Below are positions 1 through 63,233 of a stretch of 64,000 bases of DNA, one piece after another. The DNA lies in assembly GCA_977017645.1 (NCBI GenBank), contig OZ360241.1, forward strand, positions 34,410,001 to 34,474,000, read 5' to 3'. The position numbers and the translations under genes were made by a program. How positions within the stretch are numbered: the stretch's first letter is position 1; each line of letters begins with the position of its first letter. The notes under the pieces are model-generated. The model saw only the letters and a list, made by a program, of their open reading frames with translations. It did not search any database and was not told the DNA's origin. The stretch is from Torpedo marmorata (taxonomy: Eukaryota).

Positions 1-31
1 TAAACCTAACCGGACACCTTCACACTTCCAC

Positions 32-3000
32 AAACAACTGAAGCATCAACAAGTGTAGAGGCGATCGCTGTTTCAACCACGACAACAGCACACACCACAA
101 CTGCAGCAGAAACCTCAACTGCAGGCAGTATGAGTGCTTCAACATCTGAAACTACATATGCTCCAACAATGACAACAACTGCAAACACTGGTGAGTGTAC
201 TTGAAATAGGAACAAGTTAGAAATACAATTCATTTTACATCAAATAAAGCTGAAATAATTCAGATGCGATCTCGCAATGAACGTTGTGCTGATCTTTCAA
301 CCAAATTCACACCAGAGTTGACAGAACGATTTATCTTCCCTCACCTCTGTTCATAAGGTTACTCAGCATCATTCAAAATGTATTTTCATGAAATAATCGT
401 CTTCTAAGATGAAATTGCAATAATCAATCAATGCATTTTCTGAAACAATACTCACTATCTTCAAACTTACTATCACATGACACTTTCACACTTGCAGAAA
501 CAACTGAAGCATCAATAAGTACAGAGGCGACCACTGTTGCAACTACGACAATAGCACTTTCCACAACTGCAGCAGAAACCTCAACTGCAGGCAGTACAAG
601 TGCTTTGACATCTGAAATTACATCTGCTCCAACAATGACGACAACTGCAACCACTGGTGAGTATTCTTGAAAGTGGAAAAATAAATAAATTCAATTCATT
701 TCATATCCAATAAATCGGAAATAATTAAAATGCAATCAACCAACAAACAATTAGCGGATTCTGCAACAAAAATAGCACTGCAATTCGCAGCAGGAATTGG
801 CCAGTATTCAGTGATCAGTAGGACACAGTGCATCATTCAAAAAATAGCTTAACGTTATCATGGCTTTCTGACACGTATATGGAGAGAGAGATCAATGCGA
901 TTTCTCTATAATCACTCACTATCTTCAAACTAACTGTTACTTGACACCTTCACAATTCCAGAAACAATTGAAGCATCAACAAGTGCAGAGGCGACCACTG
1001 TTTCAACCACGACAACAGCACACAATACAACTGCAGCAGAAACCTCAACTGCAGGCAGTACGAGTGCTTCAACATCTGAAACTACATCTGCTCCAACAAC
1101 AAAGGCAAGCACTGGTGAGTATTTTTGAAAGAGGAAAAGATATAAAATCAGTTCATTTCATGTCCAATAAATCTGAAATAATCCAACAAGCAATTAGCTT
1201 ATTTTCGCGCCAAACACGCACCAGAATTAACAGAAAGAATAAAGTTCCAGGAAACATTGTTCAGACGTTTACTCAGCATCATTCAAAATGTATTTTAATG
1301 ACATAATCGTTTGTGCAAAAGCACTCACTATCTTTAAACTTCCTGCAACATGACACTTTCACGCTTCCAGAAACAACTGAAACATCAATAAGTACAGAGG
1401 CGAAGACTGTGGAAACCACGACAACTGCAGAGACCAAAACTGGAGCAGAAACCTCAACTGTCGGCAGTTCGAGTGCTTCAACATCTGAAACTACATCTGC
1501 TCCAACAATGACAACAACTGCAAACACTGGTGAGTGTACTTGAAAGAGGAACAAGTTAGAAATACAATTCATTTTATGTCAAATAAAGGTGAAATAATTC
1601 AGATGCGATCTCGCAATGAACGTTGTGCTGATCTTTCAACCAAATTCGCACCAGAGTTGACAGAAATATTAATTTTCCCACACCTCTGTTCCTAAGGTTA
1701 CTCAGCATCATTCAAAATGTATTTTCATGAAATTATCGTCTTCTAAGATGAAATTGCAATAATAATCAATGCATTTTCTGAAACAATACTCACTATCTTC
1801 AAATTTACTGTCACCTGACACTTTCACACTTGCAGAAACAACTAAAGCATCAAGTACAGAGGCGACCACTGTTGCAACCACGACAATAGCACTTTCCACA
1901 ACTGCAGCAGAAACCTCAAATGTAGGCAGTACAAGTGCTTTGACATCTGAAATTACATCTGCTCCAACAATGACGACAACTGCAACCACTGGTGAGTATT
2001 CTTGAAAGTGGAAAAATAAATATATTCAATTCATTTCATATCCAATAAATCTGAAATAATTAAAATGCTATCAACCAACAAACAATTAGCGGATTCTGCA
2101 ACAAAAATTGCACTGCAATTCGCAGCAGGAATTGGCCAGTATTCAGTGTTCAGTAGGACACAGTGCATCATTAAAAAAGTAGCTTGAAGTTATCATGGCT
2201 TTCTGACATGAATTTGGAGAGAGAGATCAATGCGATTTCTGTATAAACACTCACTATCTTCAAACTAACTGTAACTTGACATCTTCACACTTCCAGAAAC
2301 AACTGAAGCATCAACAAGTGCAGAGGCGACCACTGTTGCAACTACGACAATAGCACTTTCCACAACTGCAGCAGGAACCTCAACTGCAGGCAGTACAAGT
2401 GCTTTGACATCTGAAATTACATCTGCTCCAACAATGATGACAACTGCAACCACTGGTGAGAATTGTTGAAAGTGGAAAAATAAATAAATTCAATTCATTT
2501 CATATCCAATAAATCTGAAATAATTGAAATGCAATCAGCCAACAAACAATTAGCGGATTCTGCAACAAAAATTGCACTGTAATTCGCAGCAGGAATTGGC
2601 CAGTATTCAGGTGTTCAGTAGGACATAGTGCATCATTCAAAAAGTAGCTTGACGTTATCATGGCTTTCTGAAATTGGAGAGAGAGATCAATGCGATTTCT
2701 GTATAAACACTCACTATTTTCAAGCTAACTGTAACTGGACACCTTCACACTTCCAGAAACAATTGAAGCATCAACAAGTGCAGAGGCGACCACTGTTTCA
2801 ACCACGACAACAGCACACACCACAACTCCAGCAGAAACCTCAACTGCAGGCAGTACGAGTGCTTCAACACCTGAAACTACATCTGCTCCAACAACAAAGG
2901 CAAGCACTGGTGAGTATTTTTGAAAGAGGAAAAGATATAAAATCAGTTCATTTCATGTCCAATAAATCTGAAATAATCCAACAAACAATTTGCTGATTTT

Positions 3001-6000
3001 CCTGCCAAACACGCACCAGAATTAACAGAAAGAATAAAGTTCCAGGAAACATTGTTCAGAAATTTACTCAGCATCATTCAAAATGTATTTTAATGACACA
3101 ATCGTTTGTGCAAAAGCACTCACTATCTTTAAACTTCCTGCAACTTGACACTTTCACGCTTCCAGAAACAACTGAAACATCAATAAGTACAGAGGCGACG
3201 AATGTGGAAACCACGACAACTGCAGTGACCACAAATGCAGCAGAAACCTCAACTGTCGGCAGTTCGAGTGCTTCAACATCTGAAACTCCATCTGCTCCAA
3301 CAATGACAACAACTGCAAACACAGGTGAGTGTACTTGAAATAGGAATAAGTTAGAAATACAATTCATTTTATGTCAAATAAAGCTGAAATAATTCAGATG
3401 CGATCTCGCAATGAACGTTGTGCTGATCTTTCAACCAAATTCGCACCAGAGTTGACAGATATATTAATTTTCCCACACCTCTGTTCCTAAGGTTACTCAG
3501 CATCATTCAAAATGTATTTTCATGAAATAATCGTCTTCTAAGATGAAATTGCAATAATCAATCAATGCATTTTCTGAAACAATACTCACTATCTTCAAAC
3601 TTACTGTCACCTGACACTTTCACACTTGCAGAAACAACTGAAGCATCAAGTACCAAGGCAACTCCTGTTGCAAATACAACAATAGCACTTTCCACAACTG
3701 CAGCAGAAACCTCAACTGCAGGCAGTACAATTGCTTTGACATCTGAAATTACATCTGCTCCAACAATGACGACAACTGCAACCACTGGTGAGTATTCTTG
3801 AAAGTGGGAAAATAAATAAATTCAATTCATTTCATATCCAATAAATCTGAAATAACTAAAATGCAATCAACCAACAAACAATTAGCTGATTCTGCAACAA
3901 AAATTGCACAACAATTCACAGCAGGAATACACTAGTAATCAGTTGGACACTGTGCATCATTCAAAAAGGGGCTTGTAGATATCATGGTCTTATGATACAA
4001 AATTAGATTGATCAATGCGATTAATGCATAAACATTCATTATCTTCAACCTAAACCTAACCGGACACCTTCACACTTCCAGAAACAATTGAAGCATCAAA
4101 AAGTGTAGAGGCGACCGCTGTTTCAACCACGACAACAGCACACACCACAACTGCAGCAGAAACCTCAACTGCAGGCAGTATGAGTGCTTCAACATCTGAA
4201 ACTACATCTGCTCCAACAATGACAACAACTGCAAACACTGGTGAGTGTACTTGAAAGAGGAACAAGTTAGAAATACAATTCATTTTATGTCAAATAAAGG
4301 TGAAATAATTCAGATGCGATCTCGCAATGAACGTTGTGCTGATCTTTCAACCAAATTCGCACCAGAGTTGACAGAAATATTAATTTTCCCACACCTCTGT
4401 TCCTAAGGTTACTCAGCATCATTCAAAATGTATTTTCATGAAATAATCGTCTTCTAAGATGAAATTGCAATAATAATCAATGCATTTTCTGAAACAATAC
4501 TCACTATCTTCAAATTTACTGTCACCTGACACTTTCACACTTGCAGAAACAACTAAAGCATCAAGTACAGAGGCGACCACTGTTGCAACCACGACAATAG
4601 CACTTTCCACAACTGCAGCAGAAACCTCAAATGTAGGCAGTACAAGTGCTTTGACATCTGAAATTACATCTGCTCCAACAATGACGACAACTGCAACCAC
4701 TGGTGAGTATTCTTGAAAGTGGAAAAATAAATATATTCAATTCATTTCATATCCAATAAATCTGAAATAATTAAAATGCTATCAACCAACAAACAATTAG
4801 CGGATTCTGCAACAAAAATTGCACTGCAATTCGCAGCAGGAATTGGCCAGTATTCAGTGTTCAGTAGGACACAGTGCATCATTAAAAAAGTAGCTTGAAG
4901 TTATCATGGCTTTCTGACACGAATTTGGAGAGAGAGATCAATGCGATTTCTGTATAAACACTCACTATCTTCAAACTAACTGTAACTTGACATCTTCACA
5001 CTTCCAGAAACAACTGAAGCATCAACAAGTGCAGAGGCGACCACTGTTGCAACTACGACAATAGCACTTTCCACAACTGCAGCAGGAACCTCAACTGCAG
5101 GCAGTACAAGTGCTTTGACATCTGAAATTACATCTGCTCCAACAATGATGACAACTGCAACCACTGGTGAGAATTGTTGAAAGTGAAAAAATAAATAAAT
5201 TCAATTCATTTCATATCCAATAAATCTGAAATAATTGAAATGCAATCAGCCAACAAACAATTAGCGGATTCTGCAACAAAAATTGCACTGTAATTCGCAG
5301 CAGGAATTGGCCAGTATTCAGGTGTTCAGTAGGACATAGTGCATCATTCAAAAAGTAGCTTGACGTTATCATGGCTTTCTGAAATTGGAGAGAGAGATCA
5401 ATGCGATTTCTGTATAAACACTCACTATTTTCAAGCTAACTGTAACTTGACACCTTCACACTTCCAGAAACAATTGAAGCATCAACAAGTGCAGAGGTGA
5501 CCACTGTTTCAACCACGACAACAGCACACACCACAACTCCAGCAGAAACCTCAACTGCAGGCAGTACGAGTGCTTCAACACCTGAAACTACATCTGCTCC
5601 AACAACAAAGGCAAGCACTGGTGAGTATTTTTGAAAGAGGAAAAGATATAAAATCAGTTCATTTCATGTCCAATAAATCTGAAATAATCCAACAAACAAT
5701 TTGCTGATTTTCCTGCCAAACACGCACCAGAATTAACAGAAAGAATAAAGTTCCAGGAAACATTGTTCAGAAATTTACTCAGCATCATTCAAAATGTATT
5801 TTAATGACACAATCGTTTGTGCAAAAGCACTCACTATCTTTAAACTTCCTGCAACTTGACACTTTCACGCTTCCAGAAACAACTGAAACATCAATAAGTA
5901 CAGAGGCGACGAATGTGGAAACCACGACAACAGCAGTGACCACAAATGCAGCAGAAACCTCAACTGTCGGCAGTTCGAGTGCTTCAACATCTGAAACTCC

Positions 6001-9000
6001 ATCTGCTCCAACAATGACAACAACTGCAAACACAGGTGAGTGTACTTGAAATAGGAATAAGTTAGAAATACAATTCATTTTATGTCAAATAAAGCTGAAA
6101 TAATTCAGATGCGATCTCGCAATGAACGTTGTGCTGATCTTTCAACCAAATTCGCACCAGAGTTGACAGATATATTAATTTTCCCACACCTCTGTTCCTA
6201 AGGTTACTCAGCATCATTCAAAATGTATTTTCATGAAATAATCGTCTTCTAAGATGAAATTGCAATAATCAATCAATGCATTTTCTGAAACAATACTCAC
6301 TATCTTCAAACTTACTGTCACCTGACACTTTCACACTTGCAGAAACAACTGAAGCATCAAGTACCAAGGCAACTCCTGTTGCAAATACAACAATAGCACT
6401 TTCCACAACTGCAGCAGAAACCTCAACTGCAGGCAGTACAATTGCTTTGACATCTGAAATTACATCTGCTCCAACAATGACGACAACTGCAACCACTGGT
6501 GAGTATTCTTGAAAGTGGGAAAATAAATAAATTCAATTCATTTCATATCCAATAAATCTGAAATAACTAAAATGCAATCAACCAACAAACAATTAGCTGA
6601 TTCTGCAACAAAAATTGCACAACAATTCACAGCAGGAATACACTAGTAATCAGTTGGACACTGTGCATCATTCAAAAAGGGGCTTGTAGATATCATGGTC
6701 TTATGATACAAAATTAGATTGATCAATGCGATTAATGCATAAACATTCATTATCTTCAACCTAAACCTAACCGGACACCTTCACACTTCCAGAAACAATT
6801 GAAGCATCAAAAAGTGTAGAGGCGACTGCTGTTTCAACCACGACAACAGCACACACCACAACTGCAGCAGAAACCTCAACTGCAGGCAGTATGAGTGCTT
6901 CAACATCTGAATCTCCCTCTGCTCCAATAATGACAACAACTCCAAACACTGGTGAGTGTACTTGAAATAGGAACAAGTTAGAAATACAATTCATTTTACA
7001 TCAAATAAAGCTGAAATAATTCAGATGCGATCTCGCAATGAACGTTGTGCTGATCTTTCAACCAAATTCGCACCAGAGTTGACAGAACGATTTATCTTCC
7101 CTCACCTCTGTTCATAAGGTTACTCAGCATCATTCAAAATGTATTTTCATGAAATAATCGTCTTCTAAGATGAAATTGCAATAATCAATCAATGCATTTT
7201 CTGAAACAATACTCACTATCTTCAAATTTACTGTCACCTGACACTTTCACACTTGCAGAAACAACTAAAGCATCAAGTACAGAGGCGACCACTGTTGCAA
7301 CCACGACAATAGCACTTTCCACAACTGCAGCAGAAACCTCAAATGTAGGCAGTACAAGTGCTTTGACATCTGAAATTACATCTGCTCCAACAATGACGAC
7401 AACTGCAACCACTGGTGAGTATTCTTGAAAGTGGAAAAATAAATATATTCAATTCATTTCATATCCAATAAATCTGAAATAATTAAAATGCTATCAAGCA
7501 ACAACAAATTAGCGGATTCTGCAACAAAAATAGCACTGCAATTCGCAGCAGGAATTGGCCAGTATTCAGTGTTCAGTAGGACACAGTGCATCATTAAAAA
7601 AGTAGCTTGAATTTATCATGGCTTTCTGACATGAATTTGGAGAGAGAGATCAATGCGATTTCTGTATAAACACTCACTATCTTCAAACTAACTGTAACTT
7701 GACACCTTCACACTTCCAGAAACAACGGAAGCATCAACAAGTGCAGAGGCGACCACTGCTGCAACTACGACAATAGCACTTTCCACAACTGCAGCAGGAA
7801 CCTCAACTGCAGGCAGTACAAGTGCTTTGACATCTGAAATTACATCTGCTCCAACAATGATGACAACTGCAACCACTGGTGAGAATTGTTGAAAGTGGTA
7901 AAATAAATAAATTCAATTCATTTCATATCCAATAAATCTGAAATAATTGAAATGCAATCAGCCAACAAACAATTAGCGGATTCTGCAACAAAAATAGCAC
8001 TGCAATTCGCAGCAGGAATTGGCCAGTATTCAGGTGTTAAGTAGGACATAGTGCATCATTCAAAAAGTAGCTTGACGTTATCATGGCTTTCTGAAATTGG
8101 AGTGAGAGATCAATGCGATTTCTGTATAAACACTCACTATCTTCAAGCTAACTGTAACTTGACACCTTCACACTTCCAGAAACAACTGAAGCATCAACAA
8201 GTGTAGAGGCGACCGCTGCTTCAACCACGACAACAGCACATACCACAACTGCAGCAGAAACCTCAACTGCAGGCAGTATGAGTGCTTCAACATCTGAAAC
8301 TACATCTGCTCCAACAATGACAACAACTGCAAACACAGGTGAGTGTTCTTGAAATAGGAATAAGTTAGAAATACAATTCATTTTATGTCAAATAAAGCTG
8401 AAATAATTCAGATGCGATCTCGCAATGAACGTTGTGCTGATCTTTCAACCAAATTCGCACCAGAGTTGACAGAAATATTAATTTTCCCACACCTCTGTTC
8501 CTCAGGTTACTCAGCATCATTCAAAATGTATTTTCATGAAATAATCGTCTTCTAAGATGAAATTGCAATAATCAATCAATGCATTTTCTGAAACAATACT
8601 CACTATCTTCAATCTTACTGTCACCTGACACTTTCACACTTGCAGAAACAACTGAAGCATCAAGTACCAAGGCAACTCCTGTTGCAAATACAACAATAGC
8701 ACTTTCCACAACAGCAGCAGAAACCTCAACTGCAGGCAGTACAATTGCTTTGACATCTGAAATTACATCTGCTCCAACAATGACGACAACTGCAACCACT
8801 GGTGAGTATTCTTGAAAGTGGGAAAATAAATAAATTCAATTCATTTCATATCCAATAAATCTGAAATAAATAAAATGCAATCAACCAACAAACAATTAGC
8901 TGATTCTGCAACAAAAATTGCACAATAATTCACAGCAGGAATACACTAGTAATCAGTTGGACACTGTGCATCATTCAAAAAGGGGCTTGTAGATATCATG

Positions 9001-12000
9001 GTCTTATGATACAAAATTAGATTGATCAATGCGATTAATGCATAAACATTCATTATCTTCAACCTAAACCTAACCGGACACCTTCACACTTCCAGAAACA
9101 ATTGAAGCATCAAAAAGTGTAGAGGCGACCGCCGTTTCAACCACGACAACAGCACACACCACAACTGCAGCAGAAACCTCAACTGCAGGCAGTACGAGTG
9201 CTTCAACGTCTGAATCTCCATCTGCTCCAACAATGACAACAACTCCAAACATTGGTGAGTGTACTTGAAATAGGAACAGTTAGAAATACAATTCATTTTA
9301 CATCAAATAAAGCTGAAATAATTCAGATGCGATCTCGCAATGAACGTTGTGCTAATCTTTCAACCAAATTCGCACCAGAGTTGACAGAAATATTAATTTT
9401 CCCACACCTCTGTTCCTAAGGTTACTCAGCATCATTCAAAATATATTTTCATGAAATAATCGTCTTCTAAGATGAAATTGCAATAATAATCAATGCATTT
9501 TCTGAAACAATACTCACTATCTTCAAATTTACTGTCACCTGACACTTTCACACTTGCAGAAACAACTAAAGCATCAAGTACAGAGGCGACCACTGTTGCA
9601 ACCACGACAATAGCACTTTCCACAACTGCAGCAGAAACCTCAAATGTAGGCAGTACAAGTGCTTTGACATCTGAAATTACATCTGCTCCAACAATGACGA
9701 CAACTGCAACCACTGGTGAGTATTCTTGAAAGTGGAAAAATAAATATATTCAATTCATTTCATATCCAATAAATCTGAAATAATTAAAATGCTATCAACC
9801 AACAAACAATTAGCGGATTCTGCAACAAAAATTGCACTGCAATTCGCAGCAGGAATTGGCCAGTATTCAGTGTTCAGTAGGACACAGTGCATCATTAAAA
9901 AAGTAGCTTGAAGTTATCATGGCTTTCTGACACGAATTTGGAGAGAGAGATCAATGCGATTTCTGTATAAACACTCACTATCTTCAAACTAATTGTAACT
10001 TGACATCTTCACACTTCCAGAAACAACTGAAGCATCAACAAGTGCAGAGGCGACCACTGTTGCAACTACGACAATAGCACTTTCCACAACTGCAGCAGGA
10101 ACCTCAACTGCAGGCAGTACAAGTGCTTTGACATCTGAAATTACATCTGCTCCAACAATGATGACAACTGCAACCACTGGTGAGTATTCTTGAAAGTGGA
10201 AAAATAAATAAATTCAATTCATTTCATATCCAATAAATCTGAAATAATTGAAATGCAATCAGCCAACAAACAATTAGCGGATTCTGCAACAAAAATTGCA
10301 CTGTAATTCGCAGCAGGAATTGGCCAGTATTCAGGTGTTCAGTAGGACATAGTGCATCATTCAAAAAGTAGCTTGACGTTATCATGGCTTTCTGAAATTG
10401 GAGTGAGAGATCAATGCGATTTCTGTATAAACACTCACTATTTTCAAGCTAACTGTAACTTGACACCTTCACACTTCCAGAAACAATTGAAGCATCAACA
10501 AGTGCAGAGGCGACCACTGTTTCAACCACGACAACAGCACACACCACAACTCCAGCAGAAACTTCAACTGCAGGCAGTACGAGTGCTTCAACACCTGAAA
10601 CTACATCTGCTCCAACAACAAAGGCAAGCACTGGTGAGTATTTTTGAAAGAGGAAAAGATATAAAATCAGTTCATTTCATGTCCAATAAATCTGAAATAA
10701 TCCAACAAACAATTTGCTGATTTTCCTGCCAAACACGCACCAGAATTAACAGAAAGAATAAAGTTCCAGGAAACATTGTTCAGAAATTTACTCAGCATCA
10801 TTCAAAATGTATTTTAATGACACAATCGTTTGTGCAAAAGCACTCACTATCTTTAAACTTCCTGCAACTTGACACTTTCACGCTTCCAGAAACAACTGAA
10901 ACATCAATAAGTACAGAGGCGACGAATGTGGAAACCACGACAACTGCAGTGACCACAAATGCAGCAGAAACCTCAACTGTCGGCAGTTCGAGTGCTTCAA
11001 CATCTGAAACTCCATCTGCTCCAACAATGACAACAACTGCAAACACAGGTGAGTGTACTTGAAATAGGAATAAGTTAGAAATACAATTCATTTTATGTCA
11101 AATAAAGCTGAAATAATTCAGATGCGATCTCGCAATGAACGTTGTGCTGATCTTTCAACCAAATTCGCACCAGAGTTGACAGATATATTAATTTTCCCAC
11201 ACCTCTGTTCCTAAGGTTACTCAGCATCATTCAAAATGTATTTTCATGAAATAATCGTCTTCTAAGATGAAATTGCAATAATCAATCAATGCATTTTCTG
11301 AAACAATACTCACTATCTTCAAACTTACTGTCACCTGACACTTTCACACTTGCAGAAACAACTGAAGCATCAAGTACCAAGGCAACTCCTGTTGCAAATA
11401 CAACAATAGCACTTTCCACAACTGCAGCAGAAACCTCAACTGCAGGCAGTACAATTGCTTTGACATCTGAAATTACATCTGCTCCAACAATGATGACAAC
11501 TGCAACCACTGGTGAGTATTCTTGAAAGTGGGAAAATAAATAAATTCAATTCATTTCATATCCAATAAATCTGAAATAACTAAAATGCAATCAACCAACA
11601 AACAATTAGCTAATTCTGCAACAAAAATTGCACAACAATTCACAGCAGGAATACACTAGTAATCAGTTGGACACTGTGCATCATTCAAAAAGGGGCTTGT
11701 AGATATCATGGTCTTATGATACAAAATTAGATTGATCAATGCGATTAATGCATAAACATTCATTATCTTCAACCTAAACCTAACCGGACACCTTCACACT
11801 TCCAGAAACAATTGAAGCATCAAAAAGTGTAGAGGCGACCGCCGTTTCAACCACGACAACAGCACACACCACAACTGCAGCAGAAACCTCAACTGCAGGC
11901 AGTATGAGTGCTTCAACATCTGAAACTACATCTGCTCCAACAATGACAACAACTGCAAACACTGGTGAGTGTACTTGAAAGAGGAACAAGTTAGAAATAC

Positions 12001-51000: not shown

Positions 51001-54000
51001 TTCCAGAAACAACTGAAGCATCAACAAGTGCAGAGGCGACCACTGTTTCAACCACGACAACAGCACACACCACAACTGCAGCAGAAACCTCAACTGCAGG
51101 CAGTATGAGTGCTTCAACACCTGAAACCTCATCTGCTCCAACAACAACGGCAAGCACTGGTGAGTATTTTTGAAAGAGGAAAAGATATAAAATCAGTTCA
51201 TTTCATGTCCAATAAACCTGAAATAATTCAGATAAGGTCATCCAACAATCAATATGCTGATTTTCCCGCCAAATACGCACCAGAATTGAAAGGAAGAATA
51301 AAGTTCCAGGAAACATTGTTCAGAAGTTTACTCAGCATCATTCAAAATGTATTTTCATGACATAATCGTTTGTGCAAAAGCACTCACTATCTTTTAACTT
51401 CCTGCAACATGACACTTTCACGCTTCCAGAAACAACTGAAACGTCAACAAGTTCAGAGGTGACGACTGTGGAAACCACGACAACTGCAGAGACCACAACT
51501 GCAGCAGAAACCTCAACTGCAGGCAGTTCGAGTGCTTCAACATCTGAAACTACATCTGCTCCAACATTGACAACAACTGCAACCACTGGTGAGTATTCTT
51601 GAAAGAGGAAAAATAAATAAATTCAATTAATTTCATATCCAATAAATCTGAAATAACTAAAATGCAATCAACCAACACACAATGATCTGATTCTGCAACA
51701 AAAATTGCACTACAATTCACAGCGGGAATACACCAGTAATCAGTTGGACACTGTGCATCATTCAAAAAGTAGCTTGTAGATATCATGGTCTTATGATACA
51801 AAATTAGATTGATCAATGCGATTAATGCATAAACATTCATTATCTTCAACCTAATCCTAACTGGACACCTTCACACTTCCAGAAACAACTGAAGCATCAA
51901 CAAGTGTAGAGGCGACCGCTGTTTCAACCACGACAACAGAACACACCACAACTGCAGCAGAAACCTCAACTGCAGGCAGTACGAGTGCTTCAACATCTGA
52001 AACTACATCTGCTCCAACAATGACAACAACTGCAAACTCTGGTGAGTGTACTTGAAATAGGAACAAGTTAGAAATACAATTCATTTTACGTCAAATAAAG
52101 CTGAAATAATTCAGATGCGATCTCGCAATGAACGTTGTGCTGATCTTTCAACCAAATTTGCACCAGAGTTGACAGAACGATTTATCTTCCCTCACCTCTG
52201 TTCATAAGGTTACTCAGCATCATTCAAAATGTATTTTCATGAAATAATCGTCTTGTAAGATGAAATTGCTATAATCAATCAATGCATTTTCTGAAACAAT
52301 ACTCACTATCTTCAAACTTACTGTCACCTGACACTTTCACACTTGCAGATACAACTGAAGCATCAACAAGTACAGAGGCGACCACTGTTGCAACTACGAC
52401 AATAGCACTTTCCACAACTGCACCAGAAACCTCAACTGCAGGCAGTACAATTGCTTTGACATCTGAAATTATATCTGCTCCAACAATGACGACAACTGCA
52501 ACCACTGGTGAGTATTCTTGAAAGTGGAAAAATAAATAAATTCATTTCATTTCCAATTAATCTGAAATAATTAAAATGCAATCAACCAACAAACAATTAG
52601 CGGATTCTGCAACAAAAATTGCACTGCAATTCGCAGCAGGAATTGGCCAGTATTCAGTGTTCAGTAGGACACAGTGCATCATTCAAAAAGTAGCTTGACG
52701 TTATCATGGCTTTCTGACACAAAATTGGAGAGAGAGATCAATGCGATTTCTGTATAAAGACTCACTATCTTCAAACTAACTGTAACTTGACACCTTCACA
52801 CTTCCAGAAACAACTGAAGCATCAACAAGTGCAGAGGCGACCACTGTTTCAACCACGACAACAGCACACACCACAACTGCAGCAGAAACCTCAACTGTAG
52901 GCAGTACGAGTGCTTCAACACCTGAAACTACATCTGCTCCAACAACGACACCAACTGCAAGCACTGGTGAGTATTGTTGAAAGAGGAAAAGATATAAATT
53001 CAGTTCATTTCATGTCCAATAAATATGAAATAATTCAGATATAATCATCCAACAAGCAATTTGCTGATTTTCCCGCCAAATACGCACCAGAATTCACAGA
53101 AAGAATAAAGTTCCAGGAAGCATTGTTCATAAGTTTACTCATCTTCGTTCAAAATGTATTTTCATGACGTAATCGTTTGTGCAATAGCACTCACTATCTT
53201 TAAACTTCCTCACTCTGGTTGGGTGACTACATGGATTAAGCCGTGTTAGTCATCGGCTCTGCCAACATTTAACACTTTCCACCTCCGGAGTTAACTTTTT
53301 TTGTGATATTCTCTAACCTAACTTTGGTGGGAGTGTTTTTCAACAACATTATTGATAAATAATCAGAAAAATGTCTCGGAATGCGGCAAAGAAGACAAAA
53401 GTGGCTACTGAAACAACAACTGCCTCTGAATCCGAAGAGGAGATTACCTGTTCTCTGGTTATGGTTACTAATCTGATTAGATCATAGAATAATGAGTTAT
53501 ACGAGAAATTAATGACAGCCGTGCTCAAGTTGGAGGCAAAGTTGGATCGATCAATAGAGGCTATAACACTGATGCAAAAAACGTGTACAAGAAGTTGAAC
53601 AACTAGTACATCTTACGACAGACTCGCTGGAAAAAAAGATGAATAATCTCGACTTAAAATACAACAATCTGTCGTCTCATTTGGTCAACCTGGAGGGCCG
53701 TAGCAGGCGGCAGAATATTCGAATTTTGGGAGTTAAAGAAGGCATCCAGAAGGGGCTCTCTCCTGTAACAGTCTTTGCTCAGCTACATTCCGATTTAGTT
53801 GGGAAAGATGCAATAACTGGAGAGCTCCTCGTGGATCGGGCATATCGGATTCCTTCTTTCAGAGGGACATCGGAGGCACGTTCAAAAGTGGTGATCGTTT
53901 GCTGTCATTATTATCATCAAAATGAACAAATCATTCAAGTGGCTCGTCGAAAGAATGAATTGAATTATCAAGGCCAATCTATTAGATTGGTAGAAGATTT

Positions 54001-57000
54001 ATGTCCAGAAGTATTGGCGATGAGAAGAAAGTTCCATAGTGTTATGCAGATTTTCTATAATGAAGGTCTGAGGCCAATTATGCAGTATCCAGCGCATCTT
54101 CGAATTGTTTTGAAAGATGGACAGAAGAGATTCTTTAACTCTGAGGAACAAGCAAGAAATGCACTTTCTGAGATTTTGCCTGGTTCCTCTGACCAGTTGG
54201 TACTTGGGTTAACGTTTTAGCTTCTAAGGGAGTGATACCATTCTGTAACAGGGGGATGTTTAAGGGATTTCTTTCTGTTTAAATCACGATCGTACTCTTG
54301 GGATGTACCACTGTGGGGATAAGGGTAACTAATAGAATTTTGATTTTTACAATTATAATTTTAAGAGAGAAGGGATATTAATTTTCATTTTCTTTTAGTG
54401 TTGATTTCCCGGTGTTTATTTTTTTTTAAAGTTTTGTTTTGGTCTATTTTAGATTTTAGACACAACAATGTAAAATGGTGCTTAGATATTGATATAGATC
54501 TCTTTGTTCTCAAGGGAATATAAAATGGTGGTTGGGGAGGTATTTTAATTATTATGACTGCTAAAATTTTTATGAGGGAATAATGGTGGTGTTATGTTTT
54601 TTTTTAAAAATGGAGCAGACTATAAAGAAAGGGAGGGAAGATGGCATCGCAGGTTTTTGCCTGGGAGACTATTTTCCCTCCCCCATCTCTGTTACCCTTT
54701 TTTTTCTGTGTTCTGTTCTCTGGACTGATATTTGGAAAGAGTTTTGTGTGAATCTGGATTGGTTTGTAGTTTTTTAAAAATATATAAAGTGACTATTGCT
54801 ATTTTGGTGTGTGTGAGGGCTTTTAGCATTTATTTTTAAACAGGGTTTTTTTTCCCGATGTGCGCTTGCACGGGGTTTTTTTTTAATTTTTTTGAACTTC
54901 TCTGATCGAGGGTTTTTTGGGCCTTCTCTGCGCATGCGCGGGCTGGAGGTTTTTTTTTCCGTCCTGTGCATGTTCACTGACGGCCTATATCTTCGTCGGA
55001 GGGGTTAATGCGGGGTTTTTTTGGGTTTTTTTATTCGCGCATGCGCGATGCATTTTTACGTGTTGTTGCATCCCTTCTCTCAAGAAGGGGGTTTTTTTAA
55101 TTATAAATTTGTCTGGTTGTTCTGCGCATGCACGGGCTGGGGGGTTTTTTCAGCCTGTGCATGCTCGATGATGATTTCTTTAAATCGGGGAGAAGGTTAG
55201 CGCATGCGCAATGGGTTTGGGCCTGCCAAATTTCCATCTGGTAAGATTTTATTTTCCATTTTTTTTCTGTACGTTTGTGTGGATTGGGGGTTGGGGGTTT
55301 TTTTTGAACAAATTTTGAACTAAATATTGTGTAGTTTAAATTATATATTAATCTGCATATATTAATTGCTGTTATTGATCTGTGATAATAATAGAGAATT
55401 GGGGAATTTTAAGTTTGGTTTACTCCTGTCTTTTGTAGATGGGTGTTATTATCAAGTGCTTTTTCTTGGGGAGGGGTTCCCCTTAATTTTATTTTATTGT
55501 ATATGCATATATATATAATGTTTTATAAATCCTTTACTATATATGTATTGGAGTTATATGTGTGGGGATATCATAGTAAGTTAGTTGACATTAACAAATA
55601 CTATAATGAATTAATGATTGGTTACTTGATTGTAGGGAATGATTATCACTTTAAGTTCATATATAAATTTAAGAAAGGAATTATTATTCCTATACATGTA
55701 TTGGATTGATTGGTTGTTATGGGGTTCTTTTTACAAGTTTTGGAATGGAGTTGGGACACCCCCCCTTTTTTTTTTCCTTTTCACTTTATTCCCTCCCCCT
55801 TTTTTTTTCTTCTCTCCGGGGAGGGAAAGTGTTAAATAACCCTTGATTTTTACAATTAACTAGGGTTTCTTTTAACTATTTCAAGTTTGTTGGCTTGAGC
55901 TTATCCATCACAACCAAGTATTTTGGGGTTTCTATTAGTTAGTGAGCGGATCTCCCTCATGTTGGGAGATCTTCAGTTTGGAGTGGGCCGGGAGTGGGGT
56001 GTATTAGTATAGTGGGTAGGACAAGGTTACCAAAATGTTTTGATTTATGTCTTTATGGATCCGAAATGGTGGTTTCCGGGGTTGGCGGAGCTCTCGGGTT
56101 AGTAACTGTGGAATAATTATTTAGTTGGAATGGTTCCAATCAACATAGTTTCATGGAATATTAAAGGTTTGAATGACCCTATTAAATGGCATAGAATAAT
56201 GGCACATTTAAGACAATTAAAAGCAGATGTGGCCTTTTTTCAAGAAACCCATAATAAAAATTCCGATAAAGATAGATTAATGTTTAGATGGAACGGTCAA
56301 TTGTTCCATTCCTGTTCTGAAGCAAAAATTAGAGGAGTTTCGATATTAATTAATCAAAATATTCCATTTGTATTACATAATAGTACATTGGACAAACAAG
56401 GTCGTTGTATTATTTTAATAGGTAAATTATATAATAAACTGGTGGTATTAGCGAACGTTTATGCTCCAAATATCGATGATCCAGCATTTTTTGAAAAGTT
56501 TTTCTCCTTTTTACCTGATTTAATCAGTATTCATTGATTTTTGGAGGTGATTTTAATTGCTGTTTGAATACGGTTTTAGACCGTTCTTCGTTAAAATTAA
56601 CAACTCTTTCTAAATCTGCAGTATTATTACATTCCTTTATGTCGAATTATGGTATTACAGGTGTTTGGCATTTTTTAAATCCCACTAGTAGAGAATATAC
56701 TTTTTTGTCCAATGTGCATCGTTCTTATACGAGGATAGATTACTTTTTAATTGATAATCAATTAATCTCTATGACTAACTCATGCGAATATCAAGGAATA
56801 GTGATTTCTGATCATGCTCCAGTTATTTTATCTTTGAACTTCTATGATATCCCATTTATAAAAAAAACATTGGAGATTTAATACGACTCTCCTTGAAAAT
56901 CAAGTTTTTTAAAACTTTATGGAGAAGCAAATACAGTTCTTTTTTGCTGCTAACTCTTCTCCAATGATGTCTAATTTGATAGTTTGGGACACTATGAAAG

Positions 57001-60000
57001 CCTATTTGAGAGGACAAATTATTTCATATACTGCTAATATTAAGACGAAATCTAATAAGGAAAGGTCTGATTTAATTAACCAGATTAAATAAATTGACAT
57101 TCAATTTTCTCAAAATAAAAATCCGGATTTTTATAAGAGAAGAGTAGAGCTTAAAGCAAAATTTGATTTTCTATCTACTTATTCCATTGAACAACAATTG
57201 TTAAGAAGTAGAAGTTTATTTTATATTCATGGAGAAAAAACTAGTAAGTTACTAGCTGGACAATTGAAAGGAATTTCTGATAAAAAACAAATAAACAAGA
57301 TTAGGATGAAAGATGGGAAAATGTCAACAGATTATCTTAAAATAAATGAGACTTTTAAGGAATTTTATTCTAGCCTTTATAAATCAGAATTTGGTAATAA
57401 TATGACTTGATGTCGGAATTTTTGGATTGATTGAATCTTCCGGTGCTACCTCGGGATGAACGTGCAAGTTTGGAGAAACCTATTTCTCAAGAGGATATAG
57501 CCCTCGCTATTTTCTCGCTGCAGTCTGGTAAATCTCCAGGGCCAGACAGATTTCCTGTGGAATTTTATAAATATTTCTCCAAACAGCTTGTACCTCATCT
57601 GAGTGTGGTATTGGGTGACTCATTTAATGAGGGTAAGCTTCCCGTATCTTTTAATGAGGCCAGTATTTCCTTAATTCTTAAAAAGGGTAAAGAATTGACT
57701 GAATGCGCATCTTATAGACCCATTTCTTTACTTAATGTAGATATGAAGATTTTGTCTAAAGTATTAGCACATAGATTAGAAAATATTTTACCTTTAATTA
57801 TCGATTCAGATCAGACTGGATTTATTAAAAATAATTATTCATATTATAACATTAATAGATTGTTGAATATTTTATATTTACCTTCTACTCCGGCGACGGA
57901 ATGTGTTCTTTCACTAGATGCTGAAAAAGCATTTGATCGGGTGGAGTGGGAATATTTATTTGCTATTTTAGATAAATTTAATTTTGGTTTTGATTTTATT
58001 AAATGGAGTAAGTTATTATATTCTTGTCCTATGGCCTCAGTTTGATCTAATTTACAACAATCAGATATGTTTCGGCTTAATAGAGGAACCCGACAAGGTT
58101 GCCCGTTAAGTCCTTTGCTTTTTGATATAGTATTGGAACCTTTAGCTGTTGCTCTTCGACATTGCAGAGAATTTAAAGGTATAACAAGAAACGGAATTGA
58201 ACATAAAATATCTCTCTATGCAGATGATTTATTGTTATTTATTTCAAACCCTGAAGTCTCTATACCAAATATATTAACCCTATTTACTCAATTTAGACAA
58301 TTTTCAGGGTATAAATTAAACCTACAAAAGAGTGAACTATTGCCTTTAAAAGGACCTTATATTGGTTATTCTAATTTTCCGTTTAAAATAGTGAACGATC
58401 AATACCAATACTTAGGAATAACAATTACAAAAAACCATAAAAGTTTACTGAAAGAAAATTTTTGGGTATTAGTTAATAAGGTTAAATTACAATTAACGGG
58501 TTGGTCACCCTTATCAATTACAATGATGGGCGTATTAATTCGATTAAAATGAATATTTTGCCTAAATTTTTATATCTTTTCCAATCCTTACCAATTTTTA
58601 TTCCTAAAACCTTTTTTACTTCATTGGATTCAATTCTTTCTTCAAATATATGGCAGGGAAAACATCCACATATAAATAAATCCCATCTTCAAAAAATTAA
58701 AAGGAATGGAGGGTTATCACTTCCAGATTTTATATTTTATTATTGGGCGATTAAAATTCGTAATTTGCTTTTGTTATTGCATTTTGATAAGTTAGAGAAT
58801 CGCCCATCCTGGGTGGAAATGGAATTGAAGTTTTCAAAAAAAACATCTGTTAGCAATTTTAGGATACTTTTTACCATTTTCATTCGTTAAATTAACTCAT
58901 AATCCAGTATTGAGATATAGGTTGAGAATATGGGCACAGTTTAGAAATTTTTTTGGATTTAATAGCTTTTCTCTGGCTAGTCCTATTATAGATAATCACC
59001 TTTTACAGCTGTCTGTGATGGATGTAGGATTTAGGGAATGGTATAGATTGGGAATTCATAGTTTTAATGATCTTTTTATTCGAGATAGTTTTGCCACTTT
59101 CAAACAATTGGTCAATAAATTTAATCTTACTAATAGACATTTTTTTAGATACTTACAAATTAGACATTTTGTTCAGTCTAAGCTTTCAGATTTTTCTCGA
59201 ATTTTAAGTTCTAATTTTCTCGATTTACTTTTTAATATACGTTTTTTTTTTCCAAAGTGGATTAACGTCATGTATATATAATAATTTATTGGAAATCAGA
59301 GTAGCTTCTATGACGGGGATCAAGAATCAATGGGAACGTGATTTGAATGTTACATTTACAGATCAAGATTGGTATAATGCTCTTGATCTAATTAACGCCT
59401 CATTTTTTGTGCTAGACACTGTTTATTACAATTTAAAATGGTGCATAGAATTCATATGTCTAAACTTAAACTATCACGTTTTTACTCCGACATAGATCCA
59501 TTGTGTGAGAGATGTAAAATTTTTGAAGCTTCACTGATACATATGTTTTGGGAATGCCCCAATTTGGAGAGATTTTGGAAGGATATTTTTAAATCTTTAT
59601 CATTGATTTTTAAGATTAATATTGAACCATGTTCTATAATTGCTCTGTTTGGTATTTCACGTGAACTTAACATACCTTTGTCTGCATCACAGGAAAAAGT
59701 TTTAGCTTTTTCCACGTTGATTGCCAGACGAACAATTTTATTGAAATGGAAAGATGAGTTATCACCGATACATAGACAGTGGTTACTAGATGTAATGTCC
59801 TTTCTGAGTTTGGAGAAAATTAGATATGATATTAAAGATAGAAAGTTTCAATTTTTAAAGATCTGGGGGCCATTCATTGAATACTATCATGATTGGAAGA
59901 ATTAACAAAACTGACTATCCCGGGGACTCTCTGTCCAATGCTTGGAGGTCGCTACAGGATCCATACCTTTTTTTTTGTTGTTCTTTTCCTTCCTTTTTTC

Positions 60001-60352
60001 AACATCAAGGTAACCTTGCTTAGAGGGAGGGGTTAGAATAGATTAGTTATTAGTGTTTTTTTTTGTCTTCTTTTTTTCTTCCCTTTTATTTTATTTTCAA
60101 TTGGTTTTTTTTAAGATACCGGTAATTATACAAAACTAGTTTTAACCTATATTCAGAATTTAATTACGACAATTTACATAGTAGTTTTTTTTTACATATA
60201 CGTTTTTTGTTACAAAACCAAACCAGCAACGACAGAAGACGCAATGCAAAAGGGGTAAAATTGAAATTTATATTTATTAAAGACAATTAAACATATACCT
60301 TCACAACAATTAACCCCACTATAAACGTCTATAAACACTATTCTTATCTAAA

Positions 60353-60387
<35 letters not shown>

Positions 60388-63233
60388 GCCCAGACCATTA
60401 CAGTCTGTGCCAAACTCTCATGTAAAAATGAAAAAACTTTCCCCAAAAACCCCAGGTCAGTCATAAAAACAAGTCAGTCAAAAAAATATAATACAGTCCA
60501 CAAAAATTCACTCTCTAAGTTCAGGTTCCAAATTCAGCTCTGTGTGCTGGTAGAAGGACTTTTCAATGAACGTTGGAGAGAGACAATGACTGTTTATGCT
60601 TACGAATACTTGGCTTGTTTTTTTTCTTCTCTGATGACTTTTCCTTTGGGTAGAGATTCACGAGGATTGCGACTCCAAATCAGTATACCACTGATTGAGG
60701 CGTGTGCTTGGATCTCACAGCTGGTCTCGCTGATCTCACGCCTGTTCTCCACAAAAGTTGCTTTTAACTCAGGATTTCTCTGAGACAGGAGGCCATGTGC
60801 TATTCTTCCAGCCTTTTCTCTGGGATGCACAAGCCTGGATTTGGCTGTGTTCTCTAGCCTTTGCAACTCCAAACTGCCTGCTTTTTGCAGAGGTCTGCAC
60901 CTGCTTTTGCAAAAGTGCAGCAAAGTATCTTTTCCACAGCCTGTCTCTCTCTCTGCTCTCTCTCTCTCTCTCTCTCTGGGTACACCAAGTCCTGGGCAAG
61001 TTAACTCTTTCAGTACCTGGTCCCAGTGTGTACTCCAAAAGACTTCATCCTTCCTGATGACCGTCCGCAGTCCAAATGGTCAGTCATGGTTCATAACAGT
61101 ATGAATTCCAGCTGATTTTTTTGAATGTTTGTTTTAATTCTGTTACATGTTTATACATGTTTATTGTTGAAACACAATAAAAATATTTTAAAAAAAACTT
61201 CCTGTAACCTGACACTTTCACACTTCCAGAAAAAACTGAAACATCAATAAGTACAGAGGCGACGACTGTGGAAACCACGACAACCGCAGAGACCACAACT
61301 GCAGCAGAAACCTCAACTGTCGGCAGTTCGAGTGCTTCAACATCTGAAACTACATCTGCTCCAACAATGACAACAACTGCAAACACTGGTGAGTGTACTT
61401 GAAAGAGGAACAAGTTAGAAATACAATTCATTTTACGTCAAATAAAGCTGAAATAATTCAGATGCGATCTCGCAATGAACGTTGTGCTGATCTTTCAACC
61501 AAATTCGCACCAGAGTTGACAGAACGATTAATTTTCCCTCACCTCTGTTCATAAGGTTACTCAGCATCATTCAAAATGTATTTTCATGAAATAATCGTCT
61601 TCGAAGATGAAATTGCAATAATCAATCAATGCATTTTCTGAAACAATACTCACTATCTTCAAATTTACTGTCACCTGACACTTTCACACTTGCAGAAACA
61701 ACTGAAGCATCAACAAGTACAGAGGCAACTCCTGTTGCAACTACGACAATAGCACTTTCCACAACTGCAGCAGAAACCTCAACTGCAGGCAGTACAAGTG
61801 CTTTGACATCTGAAATTACATCTGCTCCAACAATGACGACAAATGCAACCACTGGTGAGTATTCTTGAAAGTGGAAAAATAAATTCAATTCATTTCATAT
61901 CCAATAAATCTGAAATAATTAAAATGCAATCAACCAACAAACAATTAGCGGATTCTGCAACAAAAATTGCACTGCAATTCGCAGCTTGAATTGGCCAGTA
62001 TTCAGTGTTCAGTAGCACACAGCGCATCATTCAAAAGGTAGCTTGAAGTAATCATGGCCTTTGACACGAAATTGGATAGAGAGATCAATGAGATTTCTGT
62101 ATAAACACTCACTATCTTCAAATTAATTGTAACCTGACACTTTCTCAGTTCCAGAAACAACTGAAGCATCAAGAAGTGTCGGTGAGACCACTGTTGCAAC
62201 TACGACTACAGCACACACCACAACTGCAGCAGAAACCTCAACTACAGGCAGTACGAGTGTTTCAACACCTGAAACTACATCTGCTCCAATAATGACACCA
62301 ACTGCAAGCAATGGTGAGTAATCTTGAAGGAGGAAAAGATATAAATTCAGTTAATTTCATGTCCAATGAATCTGAAATTATTCGGATACAATCACCGAAC
62401 ATGCAATTTGCTGATTTCTCAACCAGATTCTCACCAGTATTCACTGCAAAAGTAATGTTCCAGTATCCATTGTTAATAAAGTTACTCAGCATCGTTCAAA
62501 ATGTATTTTCATTAAATAATCGTCTTCCAAGATGAAATTGCATTGATAAATCAATGCAAATTTTGCAAAAGCACTTATTATCTTAAAACTCACTGTAAAC
62601 TGACACTTTCACACTTGCAGAAACAACTGAAGCATCAACAAGTACAGAGGCAACCCTTGTTGCAACTACGGCAAAAACACTCTCCACAACTGCAGCAGAA
62701 ACCTCAACTGCAGGCAGTACGAGTGCTTTGACATCTGAAATTACATCTGCTCCAACAATGACGACAACTGCAACCACTGGTGAGCATTCTTGAAAGTGGA
62801 AAAATAAATAAATTCAATTCATTTCATATCCAATAAATCTGACATAATTAAAATGCAATCAACCAACAAACAATTAGCTGATTCTCCAACAAAAATAGCA
62901 CTGCAATTCGCAGCAAGAATTGGGCAGTATTCCGTGTTCAGTGCATCATTCAAAAAGTATCTTGAAGTAATCATGGCCTTGTGACATGAAATTGGATTGA
63001 TAGATCAATGCGATTTCTGTAGAAAAACTCACTTTCTTTAAACTAAATGTAACCTGACACCATCACAATTCCAGAAACAACTAAAGTATCAACAAGTTCA
63101 GAGGCAACTACTGTTGCAACCACGACAACTGCAGTGAGTACAACTGCAGCAGAATCCTCAACTGCAGGCAGTACGAGTGCTTCGACATCTGAAACTTCAT
63201 CTACTCCAACAATGACAACAACTGCAAGCACTG
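32..63233 (+). CDS. Multi-exon mucin-like (PTS, Thr/Ser-rich) gene, internal part only; about 116 repeated coding exons
   Basis: Each ~450-bp unit has a branch-like CTGAC/CTAAC, a pyrimidine-rich ...CACTT(C/G)CAG acceptor, a stop-free exon (ETTEAS...SAPTMTTTATT) and a G|GTGAGT-type donor. Measured exons: 32-190, 498-656, 962-1114, 1371-1529, 1836-1991 and 63075-63233 (159/159/153/159/156/159 nt). Splicing rebuilds a G|AA Glu codon. One exon counted is 28/53 Ser+Thr and has no Cys. Confidence 0.88.
4082..4240 (+). CDS. Representative exon type A (53 codons): ETIEASKSVEATAVSTTTTAHTTTAAETSTAGSMSASTSETTSAPTMTTTANT
   Basis: ccag| at 4081 and |gtgagt at 4241; 159 nt, phase 1-1. Confidence 0.85.
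4547..4702 (+). CDS. Representative exon type B1 (52 codons): ETTKASSTEATTVATTTIALSTTAAETSNVGSTSALTSEITSAPTMTTTATT
   Basis: gcag| at 4546 and |gtgagt at 4703; 156 nt. Confidence 0.85.
5008..5166 (+). CDS. Representative exon type B2 (53 codons): ETTEASTSAEATTVATTTIALSTTAAGTSTAGSTSALTSEITSAPTMMTTATT
   Basis: ccag| at 5007 and variant donor |gtgaga at 5167; 159 nt. Confidence 0.82.
5468..5620 (+). CDS. Representative exon type C (51 codons), ending ...TPETTSAPTTKAST
   Basis: ccag| at 5467 and |gtgagt at 5621; 153 nt, with an in-frame 6-nt deletion relative to the 159-nt types. Confidence 0.85.
5877..6035 (+). CDS. Representative exon type D (53 codons): ETTETSISTEATNVETTTTAVTTNAAETSTVGSSSASTSETPSAPTMTTTANT
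   Basis: ccag| at 5876 and |gtgagt at 6036; 159 nt. Confidence 0.85.
6343..6498 (+). CDS. Representative exon type B3 (52 codons) with an N-T-T sequon: ETTEASSTKATPVANTTIALSTTAAETSTAGSTIALTSEITSAPTMTTTATT
   Basis: gcag| at 6342 and |gtgagt at 6499; 156 nt. Confidence 0.85.
37158..43390 (+). repeat. Recent tandem duplication of a 3224-bp 7-exon block
   Basis: Private variants repeat at exactly +3224: GTGGGT donors at 37343/40567, a VTTEP exon start, and an extra GA in the (GA)n run. ORF pairs 38081/41305 and 38965/42189. Confidence 0.93.
44253..44876 (+). pseudogene. C-terminal fragment of the Penelope polyprotein: linker (CTRRRCNTC) plus GIY-YIG endonuclease
   Basis: Motifs IPLILTYHP, FTCTS..LIYCIRC..C..LYIGETGRRLGDRFAEH, VSNHFN and RKLEEQHLIFRLDTLQPDGNN. 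The N-terminal 33 aa of the track ORF are host sequence. Confidence 0.88.
45061..45106 (+). ncRNA. Minimal type I hammerhead ribozyme-like motif of the Penelope pLTR (C3U variant)
   Basis: TTGATGA (45068-45074), A, GGGC-TCAA-GCCC stem II, GAAA (45088-45091), CGTC. Penelope-like elements are known to carry minimal hammerheads. Stem I pairing is weak here. Confidence 0.6.
48964..49457 (-). mobile_element. L1-clade LINE 3' fragment, copy 1 (tail, 3' UTR, last ~75 codons of ORF2)
   Basis: T-run and TTTATT (AATAAA on the minus strand) at the left end. Homologous to, but diverged from, 49458-49965. ORF2 stop at about 49228-49230. Confidence 0.8.
49458..50850 (-). mobile_element. L1-clade LINE 3' fragment, copy 2 (5'-truncated, ~1.4 kb)
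   Basis: Same tail, TTTTTTTAAAAAATATTTTATTTAAATTTTTAAATCAC, and an uninterrupted ORF2 C-terminus. Host intron resumes at about 50851. Confidence 0.85.
49741..50730 (-). pseudogene. C-terminal part of L1 ORF2 including the Cys/His zinc-binding (zf-RVT-like) region
   Basis: KWELDL...QYNFFHQLYLTP...CFRCKKEVGSFVHSTWLCPKIQDFW...LEKITY...FLKIWSPY. It parallels the ORF2 C-terminus at 59289-59905. Confidence 0.85.
53371..54220 (+). pseudogene. L1 ORF1 (coiled coil, RRM, CTD; Transposase_22-like), disrupted
   Basis: LEGRSRRQNIRILGVKEG, VDRAYRI, IRLVEDL, RRKF, YPAHLRI and FNSEEQA motifs. Probable ATG at 53371 is followed by a premature TAG near 53485. Confidence 0.88.
54861..55210. promoter_or_regulatory. 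Cluster of GCGCATGCGC (NRF1-type) palindromes in the L1 inter-ORF spacer
   Basis: Perfect cores at 54929-54940, 55036-55047 and 55199-55210; near matches at 55123-55134 and 54861-54872. Function is inferred only. Confidence 0.4.
56130..59905 (+). pseudogene. L1 ORF2 (APE endonuclease, reverse transcriptase, zinc-binding domain), broken by frameshifts and stops
   Basis: SWNIKGLN, FFQETH, NVYAPN, GGDFN, RIDYFL, SDH; KSPGPD, YRPISLLNVDMKIL, SLDAEKAFDRVEW, RGTRQGCPLSPLLF, YADD, YLGI; CERC..HMFWECP. These are spread over at least eight ORF pieces. Confidence 0.95.
60355..60384. repeat. (GT)15 microsatellite
   Basis: Direct reading. Confidence 0.95.
60944..60977. repeat. Interrupted (CT)n microsatellite
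   Basis: Direct reading. Confidence 0.9.

Follow-up and report, generated by a model that had tools for sequence, protein, structure and literature searches.

A likely MUC16-type transmembrane mucin gene of the electric ray Torpedo marmorata with a predicted stalk of one exon per repeat

The stretch of Torpedo marmorata DNA considered here (contig OZ360241.1, positions 34,410,001 to 34,474,000; the window, 64,000 nucleotides in full) is filled by tandem copies of a short Thr/Ser-rich unit and its spacer. The question is whether these copies are exons, and to which gene they would belong. A first-pass annotation had taken them for the exons of a giant mucin-like domain. Our analysis, for which 400 kb upstream and 400 kb downstream of the window were also read, makes it highly probable that the array codes, with one exon per repeat, for the stalk in a transmembrane mucin gene, likely one of the MUC16 (CA125) type. 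The exons of this gene would be spliced into a signal peptide, approximately 7,550 Thr/Ser/Ala-rich residues, 23 SEA domains, a membrane anchor and a short tail, and the product would be a probably heavily O-glycosylated barrier protein on the epithelial surface. By analogy with MUC16 and with mucin biology, the ray protein may be glycosylated, sit at the cell surface, be shed and act as a barrier.

The predicted features are the following; positions outside 1-64000 are likewise counted from the window start, and the contig position equals 34410000 + number.

-336838 to -131337: tandem MUC16-like paralog B (signal exon -336838, transmembrane exon -133043, tail exon -131429)
-29568..-29499, + strand: signal-peptide exon (ATG, hydrophobic core, phase-1 donor)
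-16974..-263, + strand: 26 upstream cassettes (anchors)
1..64000, + strand: whole window, inside one predicted 244-kb gene (joined exon model)
32..63233, + strand: 116 S/T-rich cassette exons, middle of the N-terminal mucin domain (anchors, frames, splice sites)
32..190, + strand: cassette with a CAC acceptor (acceptor sequence)
10481..32168, + strand: core of the higher-order repeat made of six cassettes (period 2,711 bp)
44151..45414, + strand: intron lengthened by a fragment of a Penelope-like retroelement (GIY-YIG match at E 0.0024, below the Pfam cut-off)
48713..51006, - strand: intron lengthened by a LINE-like element, 3' part (weak zf-RVT match)
52967..61229, + strand: 8.3-kb intron with a broken LINE-like element and other repeats (endonuclease and reverse transcriptase pieces in several frames)
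63234..64000, + strand: first part of a 3,560-nt intron, repeat-derived sequence, next cassette at 66794 (array and repeat scans)
66794..69988, + strand: 6 diverged edge cassettes, 3 without a canonical site (anchors)
75233..112674, + strand: four 9.7-kb blocks, each with 3 diverged S/T cassettes and 2 SEA domains (exon scans)
77363..210003, + strand: 23 SEA domains of three exons each, plus 21 linker exons (exon scans)
212155..212267, + strand: transmembrane exon (exon scan)
214385..214477, + strand: tail exon with stop (exon scan)

In the window, 116 acceptor and 116 donor anchors (sliding anchors) were found to pair into 116 exon-like units on the + strand, from 32-190 to 63075-63233. Their lengths are 159 nt (n = 69), 156 nt (n = 31) and 153 nt (n = 16), corresponding to 6,085 codons. 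Every unit begins and ends in phase 1 and is free of stops in that frame (0/116), while the other two sense frames are interrupted in 105/116 and 116/116 units. The 116 stop-free, phase 1-1 exons of 153, 156 or 159 nt described in the first-pass annotation are therefore present as claimed. Canonical AG/GT sites flank 115 of the 116 units: the donors are all GT (GTGAGT 98, GTGAGA 14, GTGGGT 2, GTGAGC 2) and the acceptors CAG, apart from the CAC of unit 1 at position 32. That exon has the phase and the open frame assigned to it, but not a canonical acceptor, and it is likely a skipped or silent copy, or carries a base error. The nearest AG upstream of the acceptor is 32-89 nt away in most units. 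Window introns measure 231-307 nt, with three exceptions enlarged by retroelement pieces. Counted over all 148 units of the array, the short introns come in 16 lengths, split 6/5/5 over the residues modulo 3. Retention of any of 140 short introns would bring in a stop (140/140). An LTR/Gypsy-like element was also noted within an array intron (-11032 to -5332), and a segment resembling the ends of this element recurs near window position 60400-61100. One antisense frame is open in 116/116 cassettes and is taken as a by-product of the Thr/Ala/Ser codons; all splice signals lie on the + strand.

Beyond the window the array continues for 26 units upstream and 6 downstream, giving 148 N-terminal units, with splice dinucleotides intact in 144. 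A length above 6,000 aa and an open left edge had been proposed for it; both hold, but the array proved open on the right as well. The 144 canonical exons (cassettes of 129-159 nt, approximately 22.6 kb) encode a predicted N-terminal S/T domain of 7,551 aa, in keeping with the giant mucin domain originally suggested. It contains Thr (38.4%), Ala (17.5%), Ser (16.4%), Glu (9.1%) and Pro (3.2%) but no Cys, and Ser and Thr together amount to 54.8% (4,141/7,551). A rough estimate of the stalk length, assuming 0.25 nm per residue, is 1.9 micrometres.

The unit of duplication would be one exon plus its intron, copied through unequal crossing-over or conversion. Amplification may have proceeded at three nested scales, i.e., single units, then the six-unit block, then blocks of S/T cassettes and SEA exons. 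Because the cassettes are phase 1-1, gains, losses and splice-site deaths would leave the frame intact, and with a frame indifferent to cassette gain and loss the length of the stalk would be altered chiefly by changes to the DNA. We prefer the reading that most cassettes are included by default. Alternatively, in the same gene, regulated or stochastic exon skipping might generate a ladder of stalk lengths in each animal, a possibility that we regard as real, though the less expected one. The symmetry of all cassettes would permit it, and with introns and splice sites so nearly identical, splicing could jump from one cassette to another in register. Comparable behaviour has been put forward elsewhere: control of length by splicing was proposed for chicken Muc13 (Lang, Hansson, Samuelsson 2006; PMC1552070, in the portion available), variants without whole SEA repeats are described for human MUC16 (PMC12563253, available portion), and frog FIM-C.1 is called polymorphic via alternative splicing (PMC7177656, likewise). 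Among sawfish RefSeq entries, dozens of paralog-B-type isoforms (automatic models) differ by 127-aa steps, which may represent real skipping of SEA units or a mapping artefact. However, the uniform consensus donors, the short introns and the AG-free zone fit constitutive splicing, and symmetry would be needed anyway for a tandem duplication of exon plus intron to be tolerated. Joined in order, successive cassettes would give 64 distinct junction sequences of 150 nt, 45 of which are unique, so that short reads could reveal splicing but would hardly tell skipping from mis-mapping.

Mean divergence between monomers is approximately 22%, but only 62 distinct exons and 52 distinct peptides exist among the 116 window units, which are thus not independent, and up to 13 exon copies are identical. 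A six-unit higher-order repeat has a period of 2,711 bp and 98.3-99.9% identity across 7 shifts. The architecture could be real and its copy number inflated or scrambled by the assembly, as the identical copies and blocks at 99.4-99.9% identity might suggest; we consider this improbable. Adjacent blocks differ and their order is irregular, and because of these features and of the 62 distinct exons the array would be large even with its core collapsed. The exact copy number does depend on the assembly.

Regarding selection, changes were counted on a minimum-spanning tree of the distinct copies; as the copies are converted and non-independent, the counts are approximate and may be too high, and alignment noise may account for some of the 1-nt intronic indels. 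In the window, exonic indels measure 3, 3 and 6 nt, while 23 of 25 intronic indels are not multiples of three (Fisher P 0.003). The latter include the 1, 2 and 14 nt changes listed in the first-pass annotation, whose indel of about 74 nt corresponds to intron lengths of 231 and 305 nt. Over all 148 units, distinct indels are multiples of three in 6/6 exonic cases vs 6/50 intronic ones. The intronic mutation spectrum predicts 5.1 nonsense changes for the window; for the 148 units, two ways of counting give 4.2-10.1. The exons contain none; a single "stop" in the table of distinct variants was an artefact of placing a variant on a consensus codon. Exonic frameshifts as frequent as intronic ones would have spoken against selection on a spliced reading frame, and they are not seen. 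Donor positions +1 to +5 are nearly invariant, as compared to 21% of intron columns. On the other hand, dN/dS among cassettes is approximately 1.1, and allele diversity per column is equal in exons and introns (1.29 vs 1.29). The cassettes are selected for reading frame and splice sites, with no purifying selection on residues. It appears that residues would drift freely while Thr/Ser content stays high, selection keeping the frame, the splice signals and the Thr/Ser richness. The array is a clean case in which frame and splice sites are under selection and residues are free of it.

These results bear on the view that the array is a non-coding satellite, or a dead part of a gene, which looks exonic merely due to the youth of its amplification. 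The six-unit amplification is indeed very recent, the dN/dS value is what such a sequence would give, and the open antisense frame indicates that codons of this kind rarely yield stops. Nevertheless, monomers diverged by 22% have had time to accumulate 44 intronic indels that are not multiples of three, as opposed to 0 in exons; splice dinucleotides have been kept in nearly all units; the array has the signal exon before it and the first SEA exon after it, with compatible phases; and a homologous 53-aa period exists in a skate model. We thus hold this view to be very improbable. When a cassette was used as a query against the 6.2-Gb genome, 148 candidates were obtained and all 40 that were scored (40/40) fall at this locus; therefore, as far as the genome search sees, the cassette is not a dispersed satellite.

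For the preferred reading, namely a coding stalk, the rest of the gene was modelled from the flanks, where the first-pass annotation had advised a search for signal peptide, SEA and transmembrane exons. These were found: a predicted signal exon, 23 SEA domains, a transmembrane exon and a tail, a set that is MUC16-like and not that of a gel-forming mucin. The signal exon lies 29.6 kb upstream of the window and was the sole exon passing the filter in 115 kb; its choice used generic splice weights, and a non-coding or further 5' exon is possible. In an ungapped comparison, 7/24 positions agree with the signal peptide of a paralog-B protein from a stingray (shuffle P 5e-5). A 928-aa open reading frame in intron 1 (+ strand), considered as a hidden mucin exon, was rejected, as its weak reverse transcriptase and GIY-YIG matches point to a long Penelope-like element. 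The SEA domains are encoded in exons of phases 1-0, 0-2 (always 68 nt) and 2-1, with linkers of 27-30 nt, and measure 124-133 aa plus 9-aa linkers. Twenty-two of the 23 SEA units contain exactly two Cys, 19 apart, while the last unit has four. A single transmembrane helix is followed by a short tail with basic residues and a Tyr motif, a pattern found also in named shark, ray, bird, reptile and pika MUC16 proteins.

Joining the modelled exons that are canonical gave 11,233 codons with a single terminal stop, and signal, S/T, SEA, transmembrane and tail parts account for this whole frame. Canonical AG/GT sites are present in 246/253 exons; the non-canonical ones are 7 of the 160 S/T cassettes, and there are none among the SEA-part and linker exons (0/90). 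Such a distribution would be expected if a symmetric cassette can be silenced without penalty. In the 9.7-kb blocks, one cassette class lacks the donor in copies 3 and 4, and another lacks the acceptor in copy 1. A similar alternation of S/T and SEA parts was observed in a sawshark model. At approximately 68560-68620 there is a decayed cassette remnant, in which the 3' end of an exon is fused to intron sequence and the donor is mutated. That the array is part of a secreted gel-forming mucin, or of a gene other than the one with the SEA and transmembrane exons, is scarcely credible. The introns between blocks are large and the link from array to SEA exons is a predicted one, but the S/T domain is devoid of Cys, exon scans between array and SEA exons brought up neither a VWD-like nor a terminal exon, the 9.7-kb blocks alternate S/T cassettes with SEA exons, and several named relatives have S/T repeats directly ahead of the same first SEA domain.

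The assignment of this gene to MUC16 is based on the SEA exons and on its relatives; CD45, endomucin and gel-forming mucins had been entertained as identities and were dropped once the SEA exons appeared. One SEA exon compared against 177,635 PDB sequences gave 4 matches at E<=1, three of them named Mucin-16 and the fourth 1IVZ, a murine SEA domain (PMC10829539, in the part available); a second exon matched 1IVZ only, weakly (E 0.92). Two exons matched Pfam SEA below the cut-off, one at E 5e-4, because the exons are partial domains, and neither a cassette nor a SEA C exon nor the transmembrane exon was assigned to a family by Pfam. A ray relative matched the Mucin-16/1IVZ entries of PDB at E 4e-14 to 6e-16, as compared to E>=2e-4 for other SEA proteins, and its alignment has a one-residue gap relative to the human C-loop. 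All 57 genome matches to a SEA exon (57/57) fall within this gene or paralog B.

The nearest public protein is XP_069779344.1, "mucin-16-like" of Narcine bancroftii (96% identity on the query exon, 74% over 1,772 aa). This automatic model starts inside the last cassettes and joins them to the SEA exons in the same frame. XP_059846977.1, "mucin-16-like" of Hypanus sabinus, is also among the nearest. A wider search returned 50 proteins, most of which bear the name mucin-16 or mucin-16-like; they come from sharks, rays, coelacanth, reptiles, birds and a pika. A tree was built from the last 200 residues of 32 rows, for which 30 of 52 fetched proteins were used, leaving out near-duplicate isoforms and models without the C-terminus. 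With the midpoint as root, our gene is sister to the Narcine model (100/100) in one elasmobranch clade, and the upstream paralog falls in a second. Both clades, A and B, stand together against 8 tetrapod MUC16 rows (100/100), again under a midpoint root and with no outgroup from beyond MUC16. Judging from these sequences, the gene is likely a MUC16 co-orthologue. An intronless actin-like open reading frame of 422 aa (+ strand, approximately 255850-257118) lies 41 kb downstream (Pfam Actin E 1e-109); its top Atlas cluster is "actin-like protein 9" (0.98), tied with 7B and T2-like. It is a possible synteny marker, ACTL9 lying near MUC16 on human 19p13. No other gene was recognised in the flanks, where the exon finder gave 29 candidates without a recognisable host gene.

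As anticipated by the first-pass annotation, public gene models of relatives are without most of the mucin domain. Gene-A-type models have 741-3,584 aa (among models of up to 3,705 aa) and by eye begin in the S/T or SEA region; at most one has a possible signal-like start, and the full array is present in none. Periods in the S/T parts of relatives' models are 53 aa in a skate, 57 and 54/158-162 aa in sharks and 49 aa in a turtle, and because of these 49-57-aa periods the exon-per-repeat design may be old. Homology of cassettes beyond composition was detected in skate (z 2.8-5.2) and Narcine (z 3.6-15.5); in Mustelus, Heptranchias, Pristiophorus and Scyliorhinus it was not, and in Rhincodon and the turtle 1/7 queries each gave it. 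One cassette compared against the longer proteins yielded nothing at E<=0.001 among 2,015 candidates, which is weak evidence given the low complexity of the query.

Paralog B lies upstream, with 102 kb between its end and the signal exon of the cassette gene, and has at least 35 near-identical SEA units. Its mucin domain is a single open exon of approximately 5.05 kb (about -317667 to -312619, hand-counted) with short Pro/Thr/Ser repeats. Each of its SEA units was also seen to carry a second, shorter piece resembling the C exon.

A MUC16-like family is already annotated in sharks and rays, and an exon-per-repeat mucin with a splicing hypothesis dates from 2006 (PMC1552070, in its available text). 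In the open-access literature, no paper came up that treats MUC16 of cartilaginous fishes or a MUC16 mucin domain split over several exons, and the accessible portions of PMC3056801 and PMC11378355 held nothing decisive. Apparently new, in that they were not found in print, are the scale (148 cassettes), the MUC16 setting and the tandem paralog with one 5-kb mucin exon. Our model predicts the entire structure of a MUC16-like gene from a cartilaginous fish; the largest domain of this gene is missing from the public models seen. A broader reading would hold all of the following at once: that the MUC16 mucin domain was ancestrally made of 150-170-nt phase-1 cassettes (periods of 49-57 aa in skate, shark and turtle models), that the giant exons of mammals and of paralog B are separate later inventions, and that the ray array is also read as a splicing ladder, which sets the thickness of the glycocalyx over hundreds of nanometres by means of transcripts invisible to short-read annotation. 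As a whole we consider it unlikely; the ancestry of the design is something that we infer from the repeat periods of relatives' protein models.

Compared with known systems, the predicted frame of the ray gene lacks the traits of gel-forming mucins such as MUC2/5/6/19, i.e., VWD-C8-TIL, CysD and cystine knot. MUC19, which had been named as a precedent for a multi-exon repeat domain, could not be confirmed as one, its central exon being uninterrupted in the longest isoform according to the available part of a 2026 preprint (PMC13345508). The same source, on human data, has all mucins harbouring a large VNTR exon. PTS domains are expected to contain at least 40% Ser and Thr, with Pro often above 5%, which is usual and not required (PMC4948705, in part); the ray domain exceeds the former figure and stays below the latter. 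Dense O-glycosylation gives an extended, protease-resistant stalk (same source). The secreted frog mucins FIM-B.1/C.1, of TFF or VWF type, have transcript evidence, and their polydispersity is ascribed to alternative splicing (from partial text), whereas the ray gene is known from genome sequence alone.

Chicken (and zebrafish) Muc13 resembles the ray gene in having one exon per repeat, in the ray a symmetric one, in a transmembrane SEA mucin. It differs in scale: its repeats measure 20 aa and number at least 12, and it has a single SEA domain, as opposed to 148 units of 51-53 aa and 23 SEA domains in a member of the MUC16 family. Its authors considered the design ancestral (PMC1552070, as far as its text was available), and this proposal, together with the idea that splicing can set mucin length, is now directly testable.

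Elasmobranch "mucin-16-like" models share the SEA domains, the transmembrane part, the tail and the gene-A clade with the ray gene, and S/T periods of 53-57 aa occur in skate and shark. The traits of MUC16 found in the ray gene are tandem SEA domains, the Cys loop, a predicted signal with a large S/T domain, and a transmembrane segment with tail. Human MUC16/CA125 (PDB 8VM1, 8GKL, 7SA9) likewise has a big glycosylated N-terminal domain, SEA domains with a two-Cys loop, a membrane span and a short tail. Human MUC16 has 19 repeats of 156 aa, while the ray has 23 of the shorter SEA units described above, and the Cys spacing is 20 in human (loop at residues 59-79 of the repeat; PMC10829539, in part) vs 19 in the ray. 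The ray array is freshly amplified, in contrast to the human MUC16 VNTR, the length of which is nearly invariant (PMC13345508, in part). Mucin coding length is similar in the two species, the ray having its 22.6 kb in 144 exons and human exon 3 alone exceeding 21,000 nt, the largest internal exon in one survey (PMC3467050, in part), yet no ray cassette is longer than 159 nt. The human-type giant mucin exon is absent from the cassette gene and present in paralog B, so that opposite encodings of a stalk stand side by side: 148 tiny exons, one 5-kb exon next door, and the >21-kb exon of human MUC16.
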